NCBI GenBank assembly: GCA_963708295.1
Contig: CAVPSJ010000004.1
Span: 1,024,001 to 1,088,000 of the forward strand
Reading direction: 5' to 3'
DNA length: 64,000 bases
Source of the DNA: an uncultured delta proteobacterium
Lineage (GTDB): Bacteria; Desulfobacterota; BSN033; UBA1163
Part shown: piece after piece, positions 11,249 to 32,961 of the stretch
How the letters are laid out: every line of letters begins with the position of its first letter
How positions within the stretch are numbered: position 1 is the stretch's first letter
Notes under the pieces: model-generated
What the model was told of the DNA's origin: nothing
Seen by the model: only the letters and a program-made list of their open reading frames with translations
Databases searched by the model: none
Translations under genes and position numbers: made by a program

Positions 11249-11466
11249 GCTTTAACTCCGAAAAGAATACAAATATCTTATTTTATTAATTTTTTTTCAA
11301 ATTGTCAAATTGCCTGATTCTCAAGCCGCCGTGAACCTCTGGGGATTTCTGATCTGTCACCCAACCTCCGCACCCGTAAGGGGCAGACTCCAACCAAAGT
11401 CGTGTAAGGTCGAATGGTTACGCTTCCGTTCTCACCCCGCAGAGACTGGATCTGAAAATTTTCGGA

Positions 11467-11868
11467 TTACAGTCCCTTGATGAATTTCCATTCCCTGCCC
11501 TCTTTCTTCAAAAAGAGGACCTCCTTACCGGAATAATGATTCTTTTTCTCTCCTTTTTCTACCTCCAAGTAGAATTGCTGAATAACGGTTGAAGTATCTC
11601 CTTCAATTTGGACAGATCGGTCCCAGCTGGAGTAGGTAATCCGATCGAAGGTTTTGAAATAGCCTTCAATCCGCTCTTGAAGCCGGTAAACGTCTTCCTC
11701 CTTATCCTGATAGGCCTTGGAGATGCAAGAGAGGTAAAGAGAGAGGTCCTTTTTCTGAAGGGCCTCTTGCCTTCGATTCAAAATTTGATAGATTTTTTCT
11801 TCTTCAGAAATCTGGCAGGCGAGGAGGAAAAGAACGGGGAGGACAAGCGGGAGGAACCGTTTTATCAT
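11467..11868 (-). CDS. Lipoprotein, probable NTF2/SnoaL-like fold
   Basis: Lipobox LLAC; helix-then-strand pattern ending LKKEGREWKF; overlaps the upstream stop (ATGA). Confidence 0.65.
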   Translation of the reverse strand: MIKRFLPLVLPVLFLLACQISEEEKIYQILNRRQEALQKKDLSLYLSCISKAYQDKEEDVYRLQERIEGYFKTFDRITYSSWDRSVQIEGDTSTVIQQFYLEVEKGEKKNHYSGKEVLFLKKEGREWKFIKGL

Positions 11869-13598
11869 TTCAACTTTTGAATTTCTCCGGGCAGGACCTT
11901 CACCTTGCCCCGTCCGCTCGGCCCTCCTTTTACCTCGACGCGATTCTTATCGATATCGAAGATGATTTCATCTCCTAAAACGAGATTATCTCCCTCTGAA
12001 ACTTTCGGATCACCCGTCAAAACCATTTTTTGCTCAAGGTTGTAAAAAACCGCCTTCTGGCAATGAGCGACTCGGAGCCCCTGTTGGATTTTCACATTTC
12101 CCCCGGCAGTCACCCGCTCGACTCCCTTACCGTCTTCAATGGTTACGATTTCTAAAGAATCAGCATAGATGACGATGTCTTTTTGTCGAGCAATAACATT
12201 CCCTTTGAAAATGACCAAATTTTCCTTCCAGCGGGCTTCCACGTTGTCGGAGGTGACGTCGATGGGTTGGCTCTTATCGGCGGAGATCGCAAGATTAGAC
12301 GTGGTCGTCTCCGGAGCAGCCTTCTTCTGGACGCCTATTTTCTCTCCGGAAGGCGCCGAAGTGGCAGGGAGCGCCGCCACCCTTTTCTCCTCGTCAGGTT
12401 TCACTTCTATTCTGGACGCGGTGTCGGCAGAAAGGGAAGGAGGGGGAAGCTGCGCTCGATCTTCCTTCATCGGCTCCACCGGTGGCACGGGTTCTGATTT
12501 ATTCGCTTCCTCGACGGGAGGAACGGCCTGAGCTCGACCTTCCTGAATGGGTTCAATGGCCAGCGGTGAAGCTGATTTCTTCTTTTCTTCTTCTCTTGGA
12601 GGATTTGCCTGGATCGGATCGTCCGGAATGGCGGGGGAGATCGATCTTTCGCTCTCCTTCCTCAAGTCACTCTTTTTCTCCTCCTTTAGAGAAACAGGCT
12701 GTTTTCCTTCTTCATCGAATTTGATCCAGGAAATCTTCCCCGGATCGATCGCAGCGGCCTCGTCTTTTTTGCCGGCCCCTTCGGTTTTGCGGTGAGAGGC
12801 CTCGATTTTCGCCAGGTCTTTATCGAGCATCTCCCTGGCTTCTTTGGTGTAGGAGCTCTTGGGATATTCGGTGACCATTCTCGTGAAGGCGGCTTCGGCC
12901 TTTTTCCATTGATCGAGTTCAATATAACTCTTTCCTAAGAGGTAGAGGGTTTTATCCTCTTCAGGGGTTTTAGGGAATTTCTCCAACAATCTCTCAAAAC
13001 GGGGGACAGCCGCTTCAAACCTTCCTTGCTTATAATAGAAATTCCCGATGTAGAATTCATGGTCAGCCAACCGGTTTTTGCAAACGCCAATTTTTTCCCT
13101 TGCCTTCTCGGTAAAGAGGCTGGGAGGATAGCCGGCGATGAGATATTCAAAACTGGAAAGGGCTTTTTTCGTGGGTGTCTGATCCCGATCCAGGGTGAGC
13201 ATCTGATTGAAATGAGACATCCCGATTTGAAACTGAACATAAGGGATCTCTTCATGGCTGGGATGGGTCTTCTTGAACTCTTCATAGGCCGCAATCGCTT
13301 CTACAAATTCCTTTTTCAAGAAATGGCAATCGCCGACCTTCAACTCGGCCAAAACGGTATAAGGAGGGCTATCCGGAAAGCTCGACTTCAACTCTTCGAA
13401 TTTCTTCTGGGCATCGATATAATCTCTTTTATTGAATCGAGCCAATCCTTCTCGATAGAGGGTTTCGGGGTTTCCCTCAATCTTGAGATCTTTCCCTTTT
13501 CCACCGCATCCAAAAAGCAGGGAGACCGTGATGGGCAGCCAGACCAGCCGCTTCAAAAAAGTGCTCTTTTTCATATAAAAAGTTTCCAAAAGTTCCAT
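11865..13598 (-). CDS. bamD: BamD-like lipoprotein fused via a long P/E/K-rich linker to an LptA/OstA domain
   Basis: Lipobox LFGC; TPR region with YEEFKKTHP, DRDQTPTKKA, LADHEFYIGNFY; C-terminus PIDVTSD..FKGNVIARQ..IYADSL..AGGNVKI..LTGDPKV..GRGKVKVLP. Confidence 0.85.
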   Translation of the reverse strand: MELLETFYMKKSTFLKRLVWLPITVSLLFGCGGKGKDLKIEGNPETLYREGLARFNKRDYIDAQKKFEELKSSFPDSPPYTVLAELKVGDCHFLKKEFVEAIAAYEEFKKTHPSHEEIPYVQFQIGMSHFNQMLTLDRDQTPTKKALSSFEYLIAGYPPSLFTEKAREKIGVCKNRLADHEFYIGNFYYKQGRFEAAVPRFERLLEKFPKTPEEDKTLYLLGKSYIELDQWKKAEAAFTRMVTEYPKSSYTKEAREMLDKDLAKIEASHRKTEGAGKKDEAAAIDPGKISWIKFDEEGKQPVSLKEEKKSDLRKESERSISPAIPDDPIQANPPREEEKKKSASPLAIEPIQEGRAQAVPPVEEANKSEPVPPVEPMKEDRAQLPPPSLSADTASRIEVKPDEEKRVAALPATSAPSGEKIGVQKKAAPETTTSNLAISADKSQPIDVTSDNVEARWKENLVIFKGNVIARQKDIVIYADSLEIVTIEDGKGVERVTAGGNVKIQQGLRVAHCQKAVFYNLEQKMVLTGDPKVSEGDNLVLGDEIIFDIDKNRVEVKGGPSGRGKVKVLPGEIQKLK

Positions 13599-13782
13599 AA
13601 TTATGATAGGAAGGGCTTAGGATGTCAACACAAAAATCCCTTTTGAGAGCGGGGGGAACTGGCCAAAAGGGCTTCTGGATAAAGCATCTTTTGCCTTGAA
13701 TTTAGAGCAGAAAATCTTTAAGATAACATTAAAAACCTTATCTTCATGCTCAAGGAAAATCCGAGGAAAGCGAGAAAACCCG

Positions 13783-32580: not shown

Positions 32581-32961
32581 TTACCTCCAATAGCGGCGAT
32601 AGGGATAGTGGTAAGGATAGTATGGGTACGGATAATAATAAGGATAGGGATAATAATAGGGATACGGATGGGCGTAATAATAGGAGGGGGGTTGCCGACG
32701 GCATTCCGTCCCGACCACTCGATCTTGAGAAAAAGTGAGCACGCAAACAGAATCTGTATTTGAAAAATGGTATTCCCAGGTTTCAACACTCTTCCCGTTT
32801 ACAGTTTTATACGTGATCAGGTCTGTCTTTCCCCACAGGGATACCACTTCTTCTTTCGTCATGTTAGGTTTAATATCTGAAACATGACGGGGGTGACATG
32901 AAGAAGAAATGAGAATAAGAGCCACGAAAAGAGTCAGATAGGCAATGCGTTTTGTTTTCAA
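32581..32961 (-). CDS. SmpA/OmlA-like lipoprotein with a Tyr/Pro-repeat tail
   Basis: ISSSC lipobox; PNMTKEEVVSLWG...ETWEY; C-terminal (YYYPYP)n. Confidence 0.75.
   Translation of the reverse strand: MKTKRIAYLTLFVALILISSSCHPRHVSDIKPNMTKEEVVSLWGKTDLITYKTVNGKSVETWEYHFSNTDSVCVLTFSQDRVVGTECRRQPPSYYYAHPYPYYYPYPYYYPYPYYPYHYPYRRYWR

Follow-up and report, generated by a model that had tools for sequence, protein, structure and literature searches.

It is not settled how Gram-negative bacteria, as their outer membrane grows, coordinate the insertion of proteins by BAM with that of LPS by the Lpt machinery. BamD binds the POTRA5 domain of BamA and is needed for OMP assembly. LptA binds LPS and forms the bridge from LptC to LptD, and LptD, the LPS translocon, is also a slow BAM substrate, among the hardest. 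In a 64,000-nucleotide stretch of DNA from an uncultured delta proteobacterium (the window), one reading frame had been predicted to join BamD to an LptA-like domain. This locus raises two questions: is the joint protein real, and what would an LptA-type domain do on BamD? Here, we address both, starting from the domains themselves and ending with the explanations that their combination allows.

BamD and an LptA-type domain in one reading frame

By its sequence, the gene encodes a single predicted outer-membrane lipoprotein in which a BamD half carries an extra LptA-type jellyroll on a flexible, fast-evolving tether. The features are collected in Table 1. Translation probably starts at Met9 rather than at the first ATG, because the promoter-like match ends at 13600, only 2 nt ahead of that ATG. 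The predicted lipoprotein signal peptide reads MKKSTFLKRLVWLPITVSLLFG-C, and Gly30 and Cys31 of the lipobox are unchanged in 31 homologues.

Table 1. Features of the fusion locus (window coordinates; residues numbered from the first ATG).
Feature	Position	Strand	Basis or remark
Promoter-like match, sigma-70 type, TTGACA-17-CATAAT	13600..13628	-	11/12 positions; consensus match only
BamD-linker-LptA-type fusion lipoprotein, whole ORF	11865..13598	-	577 aa from first ATG, stop included in coordinates
Likely start Met9 (13574), lipoprotein signal peptide and lipobox LLFG-C (Cys31)	13506..13574	-	sequence
BamD (YfiO) TPR domain, residues ~36-270	12789..13493	-	PF13525, TIGR03302, AF2 helices
Disordered P/E/K/A/S-rich linker with internal repeats, residues ~271-438	12285..12788	-	pLDDT, identity, indels
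Short conserved linker motif WIKFDEEGKQPVSL, residues 291-304	12687..12728	-	alignment of relatives
LptA-type beta-jellyroll (OstA) domain and conserved C-terminal tail, residues ~439-577	11868..12284	-	TIGR03002, PF03968, AF2, Foldseek
NTF2-like (DUF4440) lipoprotein gene, 133 aa, lipobox LLAC	11467..11868	-	profile match; ATGA overlap 11865-11868

The N-terminal half matches Pfam YfiO (PF13525) over residues 43-235 with 148.8 bits (cut-off 25) and NCBIfam TIGR03302 with 229 bits (cut-off 81.4), and its AF2 helices have a pLDDT of about 90. In a profile search, the fusion was the only BamD-class locus of the genome; the other matches were generic TPR proteins, either below the cut-off or multi-repeat. 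Nearly all genomes searched likewise hold one BamD-class match each, and BamA is encoded in the genome (650 bits). Because the N-terminal half is the cell's sole BamD, it must, as far as sequence can tell, belong to the BAM complex.

The C-terminal half exceeds the cut-off of the LptA equivalog profile TIGR03002 (85.5 against 71.7 bits, residues 439-568), a profile that gives 87.8 bits for the genome's canonical LptA. In addition, it matches Pfam LptD_N (PF03968; residues 448-552, 66.4 bits), shares 41% identity with the genome's own LptA and has a PDB profile match to LptA (2r19, E=1e-7). In the full-length AF2 model, the pLDDT of the jellyroll is 35-77 from a shallow alignment, and we instead used a domain-only model made from a more diverse alignment (pLDDT 87.2, pTM 0.81). 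Foldseek searches with this model ranked LptH and LptA above LptD-N and LptC, with TM scores of about 0.80-0.85 to LptH/LptA (4uu4, TM 0.80, rmsd 2.0; 2r1a, TM 0.80/0.85). The protein stops 9 residues past the TIGR03002 match, with no LptD beta-barrel behind the jellyroll. In the sequence, the jellyroll sits behind BamD and is not preceded by a separate signal peptide.

Most of what the original prediction had read from the letters therefore stands. The single 577-aa ORF with a lipobox is borne out by the ORF and the domain profiles, the completeness of the BamD-like domain by its TIGR03302 score and coverage (positions 2-224 of 239), and the LptA/OstA nature of the C-terminal domain by the equivalog score and the fold match. 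The ‘extra TPRs’ also claimed for the BamD half are not established, given the extent of that TIGR03302 match and helices that run to residue ~274. It had further been stated that no other lpt gene lies near the fusion, and this holds: canonical LptC, LptA, LptB, LptD and LptE are all encoded apart from it; contig 13 carries lptC-lptA-lptB as well as lptE, and contig 19 carries lptD. A separate lptA, whose presence between lptC and lptB had been left to be checked, is thus found on contig 13. Five genomes from other families that carry the fusion also have the canonical separate set, and no free second LptA was found in the non-fusion sister genomes searched.

Integrity and spread of the fusion

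A mis-assembly, a lost stop codon or read-through of two adjacent genes could all produce a joint frame of this kind. Two observations might be taken in favour of such an artefact: the halves lie in different frames in one relative (G019), and the frames are broken at four long-read MAG loci (L106, L107, L109 and L117). In these broken cases, however, the halves overlap within the low-complexity linker, a pattern expected of sequencing errors. Moreover, a single frame recurs in hundreds of independent assemblies. Both PF13525 and PF03968 occur in all 120 of the homologues listed (59-95% identity). Within the window's own family (f1), both halves share one frame in 21 of 25 genomes, and 48 of the 51 genomes with a BamD match have a frame of 474-638 aa. 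The exceptions checked were truncated at contig ends (two) or frameshifted within the linker (G019), and none was a true split.

Continuity through the linker, which the original prediction had wished to see confirmed, is provided by an independent metagenome contig that covers 12035-13700, and linker indels in other metagenomes stay in frame (+3, -9 and -6). In sister genomes, bamD and lptA do not adjoin, which also speaks against read-through of neighbouring genes. The original prediction had named two ways in which it might fail, namely that relatives encode two separate genes or that the C-terminal domain does not score as LptA; neither is the case. Taken with the one-frame assemblies, the spanning contig and the in-frame indels lead us to judge the artefact refuted, and we give it practically no chance. 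Contigs from a metatranscriptome (X20) are at least 88% like parts of the gene and come from relatives; their word share is small, and carry-over of DNA is possible. We do not take these contigs as a sign of expression.

Of 145 genomes sampled from the phylum, 24 carry the fusion, and these belong to 10 of about 77 families. The fusion is absent from the remaining 121 genomes, and most families manage without it; the stand-alone BamD of sister families is encoded in frames of 262-387 aa. A tree of the jellyrolls (62 domains, 137 columns) has an unresolved backbone. On the best tree, the fused jellyrolls imply three changes, and the well-supported branches require only one. The AU test for the fused jellyrolls as one clade gave p = 0.286, which neither refutes nor establishes that the fusion arose once.

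The tether and the coupled lipoprotein

The linker of about 170 aa consists largely of A (13%), E (14%), K (12%), P (12%) and S (10%), and its pLDDT in the full-length AF2 model is below 50. Inspection by eye revealed no hydrophobic segment in it fit for an internal signal peptide, in agreement with what had been claimed of a P/E/K-rich linker of this length. Between genera, the linker is 34-40% identical, against 74-75% for the fused jellyroll, 70-75% for BamD and 66-83% for LptA. Repeats have expanded among homologues, and linker length ranges from 37 to 313 aa among the fusion carriers of the phylum. One short stretch is conserved: in the motif WIKFDEEGKQPVSL, K293, F294, E296 and E297 are unchanged within the family, and the motif is doubled in some relatives. 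The shortest linkers (37-54 aa) are those of three families (f4, f27 and f61). Because tethers of that length are too short to cross the periplasm, a conserved partner of the jellyroll would have to lie close to the outer membrane.

Downstream, the TGA of the fusion overlaps the ATG of the next gene as ATGA. The product of this gene matches DUF4440 (PF14534) with 29.3 bits (cut-off 25.2). The overlap and the match agree with the earlier view of a translationally coupled NTF2-like lipoprotein. It has 677 homologues, the best 120 of which are at least 81% identical, and its nearest Atlas clusters are DUF4440/SnoaL-like only. A PDB profile search with the lipoprotein gave nothing meaningful (best E = 0.42), and a literature search on ‘Cds6’ led only to an unrelated Chlamydia plasmid gene. 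The NTF2-like module accompanies the fusion in two lineages. Some of f1 has it as a coupled gene, and another family (f26) has it as a fused domain; the modules of the resulting triple fusion are homologous to the lipoprotein in the window. We also considered it as a universal partner of the fusion and rejected this, since it is absent beside the fusion at two loci (L016 and L018) and at all loci searched outside f1 and f26; some f1 genera lack it as well. A complex prediction of the BamD domain and the jellyroll domain with the lipoprotein scored 0.00, which counts neither way.

What the tethered jellyroll may do

The explanation we prefer, to which we would give about an even chance, is that the jellyroll is a BAM-tethered LptA paralogue that docks near the outer membrane, on the periplasmic domain of LptD or on the last LptA of the bridge. 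It would act as LptA does and, near the outer membrane, join its edge to that of another Lpt jellyroll. Its likeliest partner would be the periplasmic N-terminal domain of LptD or, again, the last LptA of the bridge, and the pairing would keep BAM beside LptD. The tethered domain may hold or cap the nascent N-terminal domain of LptD while the barrel folds. Alternatively, it may fix mature Lpt bridges next to BAM by their outer end, such that LPS and new proteins would be inserted at the same site. In part of the family, the NTF2-like lipoprotein from the overlapping gene may be a further component. The original prediction had proposed that the fusion could either couple the delivery of LPS to the insertion of OMPs or cap the LptD N-terminal domain during its assembly. 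This idea appears compatible with all of the findings, and it becomes somewhat more specific because the 37-54-aa linkers would force a partner close to the outer membrane. According to PMC13067283, intermediates of LptD folding become stalled on BamD, and LptD assembly is aided by the lipoprotein LptM.

Several points count against the docking explanation. A jellyroll bound to LptD would compete with LptA unless its other edge accepts LptA. In E. coli, BamD is normally much more abundant than LptD, so most tethered domains would be left without an LptD partner. Linkers can reach 313 aa, far more than a role near the outer membrane needs, and the fusion is lacking in most families of the phylum. 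A bolder form of the docking explanation would have BAM and Lpt hard-wired as one hub, in which the tethered LptA unit of each BAM forms the outer end of the LPS bridge on LptD, the insertion of protein and LPS is spatially coupled, and the NTF2-like protein is a third module in some lineages. We hold this form to be possible but doubtful.

The jellyroll might also hold LPS or lipid A beside BAM, feeding folding OMPs or reporting LPS flux, and never join a bridge stably. The retained LptA-type fold and sequence hallmarks would suit such a hand-off or sensing role, as would the attachment to the sole BamD, and one domain per BAM complex would be more in keeping with a general role than with one specific to LptD. 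However, LPS binding by this jellyroll is a conjecture, and LptA-family domains are known for relay from jellyroll to jellyroll, not for delivery to proteins; we consider hand-off or sensing unlikely. A slim chance remains for a different cargo, with the jellyroll and the NTF2-like module together handling another hydrophobic molecule (e.g. lipoprotein acyl chains or another glycolipid). The joining of that module in two lineages points this way, and the reference list of PMC13067283 includes work on Lpt-Lol crosstalk and on a lipoprotein-flipping LptD homologue. Yet most fusion lineages and some f1 genera do without the module, and by its profile score the jellyroll is an LptA equivalog rather than a divergent OstA domain. 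Slimmer still is the chance that the fusion is an export vehicle, serving only to secure co-expression and export of a second soluble LptA that cleavage of the linker in the periplasm would release. A long, disordered and protease-accessible linker and a jellyroll without its own signal peptide are what such a vehicle would be expected to have, but linkers of 37-54 aa are conserved too, a free-standing paralogue is absent from the sister genomes searched, and export could be had more simply with an ordinary signal peptide.

Compared with known systems, the architecture is one of known parts newly combined. Like BamD (YfiO) elsewhere, the fusion has a lipobox, passes the curated cut-offs with a TPR domain of full length and is present as one copy in the genome; it differs by the C-terminal disordered linker of about 170 aa and a whole extra folded domain. 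The jellyroll shares the fold of LptA/LptH (2r19, 2r1a and 4uu4) and passes the equivalog cut-off, but those proteins are soluble, have their own signal peptide and come from lptC-lptA-lptB, whereas the fused jellyroll is tethered to an outer-membrane lipoprotein and encoded elsewhere. With the N-terminal jellyroll of LptD it has in common the Pfam family, the fold and being held at the outer membrane. That domain, however, sits on a 26-strand barrel, and the fused one, on the flexible tether of a lipoprotein, is closer to LptA. A functional likeness may also exist to LptM (YifL; named in PMC13067283) and BepA, E. coli accessory factors that tie BAM to LptD maturation. These are separate proteins of no sequence relation, while the candidate LptD-binding module here lies within BamD itself.

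The words ‘LptA’ and ‘fused’ each occur 0 times in the available text of PMC13067283, and the literature searched contained no account of a natural BamD-LptA fusion, in line with the earlier statement that no characterised example was known. Strong selection has maintained the fusion to the sole BamD in about ten Thermodesulfobacteriota families, which is genetic evidence that proximity of BAM and Lpt is useful. The fusion also makes it possible to test which edge of the jellyroll docks where, whether LptD assembly needs the fused domain and what the NTF2-like module contributes. Annotation pipelines label fusion proteins either ‘BamD’ or ‘LptA’, and either label masks the other half.

Architecture of the fusion protein

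Matches above the Pfam and NCBIfam cut-offs bear out the original prediction of a single ORF with a lipobox, a BamD domain and an LptA/OstA domain. In Pfam, YfiO/BamD matches residues 43-235 (148.8 bits) and LptD_N matches residues 448-552 (66.4 bits). The NCBIfam models score 229 bits for BamD (TIGR03302, cut-off 81.4), and 85.5 bits over residues 439-568 for the LptA equivalog (TIGR03002, cut-off 71.7); on the latter model the canonical LptA of the same genome (G000) scores 87.8 bits. The prediction had named a C-terminal domain that fails to score as OstA/LptA as a way for the idea to fall; the domain scores as LptA. It shares 41% identity over 135 residues with the genome's canonical LptA (E = 7e-31), and PDB chains of E. 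coli LptA align along its full length (2r19, E = 1e-7). An AlphaFold2 model of the domain by itself, based on 39 fused and canonical jellyrolls, reached pLDDT 87.2 and pTM 0.81. Its top Foldseek matches are LptH (4uu4, TM 0.80, rmsd 2.0) and LptA (2r1a, TM 0.80/0.85), with LptD N-terminal domains and LptC ranking below. The C-terminal domain is LptA-type.

The N-terminus carries a lipoprotein signal ending LLFG-C (Cys31). Translation probably starts at Met9, because a sigma-70-like consensus match (TTGACA-17-CATAAT) ends 2 bases upstream of the first ATG; an MKK start is seen in many homologues. The linker (residues ~271-438) is rich in P/E/K/A/S, is modelled as disordered (pLDDT <50) and shows no hydrophobic stretch by eye, in agreement with the predicted P/E/K-rich linker lacking an internal signal peptide. 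It also holds a short motif, WIKFDEEGKQPVSL, with four positions invariant within the window's family (f1). The motif consensus, (L/I)(I/V)(K/R)(F/Y)(E/D)EE..(Q/E)P, is single in the window and double in relatives such as loci L018 and L023 and cluster representative P0122, and was not found in families other than f1. This motif may be a docking peptide.

Coordinates of the fusion gene and of other features in the window and its genome
Feature	Position	Strand	Length	Remark
BamD-LptA fusion ORF	window 11865-13598	-	577 aa	
Probable fusion start	window 13574			Met9
Linker motif	window 12687-12728	-		directly after BamD
NTF2-like lipoprotein gene	window 11467-11868		133 aa	ATGA overlap with fusion stop
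Sigma-70-like site 5' of ffh	window 11272-11308	-		TTGACA-17-TAAAAT (11 of 12); consensus match only
Weak BamE-like frame	window 32713-32889 (= G000:C4:1056713-1056889)	-	132 aa	PF04355 19.5 bits (cut-off 23.2)
Second weak BamE-like match	C4:1133329			outside window
Large TPR frame	G000:C13:37860-40538		1006 aa	
lptB-rpoN frame	L001:1975-3318			G000 contig 13, outside window

Integrity, spread and evolution of the gene

A search of 5.8 billion proteins with the fusion returned 612 matches, and both PF13525 and PF03968 are present in 120 of the 120 matches listed (59-95% identity, 508-723 aa). Both halves lie in one open frame in 21 of 25 searched f1 genomes, G000 included. In G014 a contig end cuts the fusion inside the linker, and in G019 the halves occupy overlapping frames, a frameshift within the low-complexity linker. 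This query found no BamD match in G015 (70% complete) or G020 (94% complete). G020 has canonical LptA, and its missing BamD, absent in repeated searches with the same query, may reflect either a gap in the assembly or genuine loss. BamD matches came from 51 f1 genomes in the sample of the whole class, and 48 of these have frames of 474-638 aa, frame length being the sole evidence for fusion in G041-G070; the third short frame (G045) is likewise cut by a contig end.

The original prediction conceded that relatives might encode separate genes, with an assembly error or a lost stop having joined them. Frames are indeed broken and overlapping in four long-read MAG loci with 'MFD' isolate names (L106, L107, L109, L117), but close relatives are intact, and these breaks resemble indel errors within low-complexity linker sequence. 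In an independent sediment metagenome (X7), a 2204-nt contig spans 12035-13700 unbroken, from the jellyroll interior through the linker into BamD, and linker indels in other metagenome runs are of +3, -9 and -6 bases. Together with the single frame in many genomes, these observations lead us to reject an artefact. Nor is the fusion a read-through of neighbouring genes, since bamD and lptA lie far apart in checked sister genomes without it.

Within the class, f1 has the fusion, and stand-alone BamD (frames of 262-387 aa) occurs in f2 (7 genomes) and f3 (5 genomes); G027 has a 560-aa BamD frame extended upstream rather than downstream. An even sample of 151 genomes from the phylum gave a BamD match in 145, and 31 loci with frames of at least 351 aa were scanned with HMMs built from an alignment (A1). 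Of the 31, 19 encode BamD and jellyroll in a single frame, as does G038, making 20 genomes: f4 (2), f13 (2), f15 (2), f17 (4), f26 (4), f27 (1), f49 (1), f61 (2) and f62 (2). Adding four from f1 (two verified; G065 and G067 by frame length alone) brings the count to 24 fusion genomes out of 145, spread over 10 of about 77 families. Jellyrolls from f15 and f49 are divergent or partial (33-56 bits). Among 1.84 billion protein clusters, the 150 best-matching representatives comprise 25 two-domain proteins, 117 with BamD only and 8 jellyroll fragments starting inside the linker. Record and source names assign the carriers, all of them MAGs, to Syntrophaceae, Syntrophus sp., Syntrophorhabdales/-aceae and unclassified 'delta proteobacteria'. 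Other BamD proteins of 406-768 aa (L063 in G174, L046 in G086, P0191, P0198, P0212, P0218) have C-terminal extensions matching neither the jellyroll nor Pfam (E <= 1e-3), so the phylum holds other uncharacterised BamD extensions.

In the jellyroll tree, fused jellyrolls form well-supported family-level clades on an unresolved backbone, and none is a supported sister of its own genome's LptA. A single origin is not rejected (AU test, p = 0.286). Identities between f1 genera (fused jellyroll 74-75%, BamD 70-75%, canonical LptA 66-83%, linker 34-40%) indicate, at the sequence level, purifying selection on both folded halves and a linker behaving as a spacer. Between lineages the linker varies in length from 37 to 313 aa, growing by repeat expansion.

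Genome setting and the NTF2-like module

G000 (4.95 Mb) encodes no BamD-class protein apart from the fusion. A large frame of many TPR units repeatedly matches the BamD model; we rejected it as a BamD and regard it as a large TPR protein. The genome also encodes LptE (57 bits) and BamA (650 bits); no BamE match reached the cut-off, and two weak BamE-like matches are tabulated. Whether a separate lptA sits in the lptC-lptB locus, a point raised at the outset, is answered by contig 13, which carries kdsD-lptC-lptA-lptB-rpoN (LptC 123.8, LptA 87.8, LptB 339 bits); contig 19 encodes LptD with its own N-terminal jellyroll. With this complete canonical set, the fused jellyroll is therefore an additional paralogue and not a relocated LptA. 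Canonical LptA, fusion and LptD likewise coexist in each of five fusion-bearing genomes of other families, and in checked sister genomes without the fusion the complement is LptA plus LptD, a second free LptA being absent. At the contig 13 locus (L001), no stop codon separates the lptB frame from rpoN: 27 in-frame residues connect the usual LptB terminus (...YLGDGFEL) to sigma-54 (MALELKQ...PQLQQ). Four genomes of other families (L069-L072) have the lptB stop right behind the equivalent motif. A lost stop, an LptB-RpoN fusion or a sequencing error could each explain the G000 frame.

The predicted translationally coupled NTF2-like lipoprotein was recovered, with its start overlapping the fusion stop and a DUF4440/NTF2-like domain (29.3 bits vs 25.2, Pfam). 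It has 677 homologues, the best 120 nearly all of 133 aa and at least 81% identical. The gene lies directly 3' of the fusion in nine loci (L012-L015, L019-L022, L024) and G019; among the loci examined it is absent in L016, L018 and beside fusions of every other family. Four distant cluster representatives with triple fusions (P0132, P0136, P0137, P0141; 855-1014 aa) and f26 genomes (L042-L044) carry one or two NTF2-like domains (Cds6_C/DUF4440) beyond the jellyroll, and the window's lipoprotein matches the modules of P0132 (E = 1e-6, 9e-5) and P0137 (E = 2e-4, 3e-3). The association is thus recurrent in two lineages, not universal. The sigma-70-like site upstream of ffh suggests that the fusion and NTF2-like genes form their own two-gene unit, apart from ffh-rpsP-rimM.

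Possible roles at the outer membrane

A subunit of the beta-barrel assembly machine (BAM) has an LptA-type domain tethered to it. Members of the LptA family act by pairing edge to edge with other Lpt jellyrolls, so the fused jellyroll would most likely pair with the N-terminal domain of LptD or with the final LptA in the bridge. Linkers of only 37-54 aa persist in some lineages, from which we infer a partner close to the outer membrane. The jellyroll might act on nascent LptD at BAM, or tie mature Lpt bridges to BAM. A 2026 BAM review (PMC13067283) describes LptD as a slow substrate, with intermediates that stall on BamD. Alternatively, the jellyroll could hand off or sense LPS at BAM, it could handle different cargo together with the NTF2 module, or proteolysis could release it as a soluble second LptA.

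The fusion bears on the coordination of protein and LPS insertion. Each domain belongs to a textbook family; the novelty lies in joining them. Our literature searches found no paper describing a BamD-LptA fusion, and by term search 'LptA' and 'fused' are absent from PMC13067283. Annotation pipelines name the fusion either BamD or LptA.
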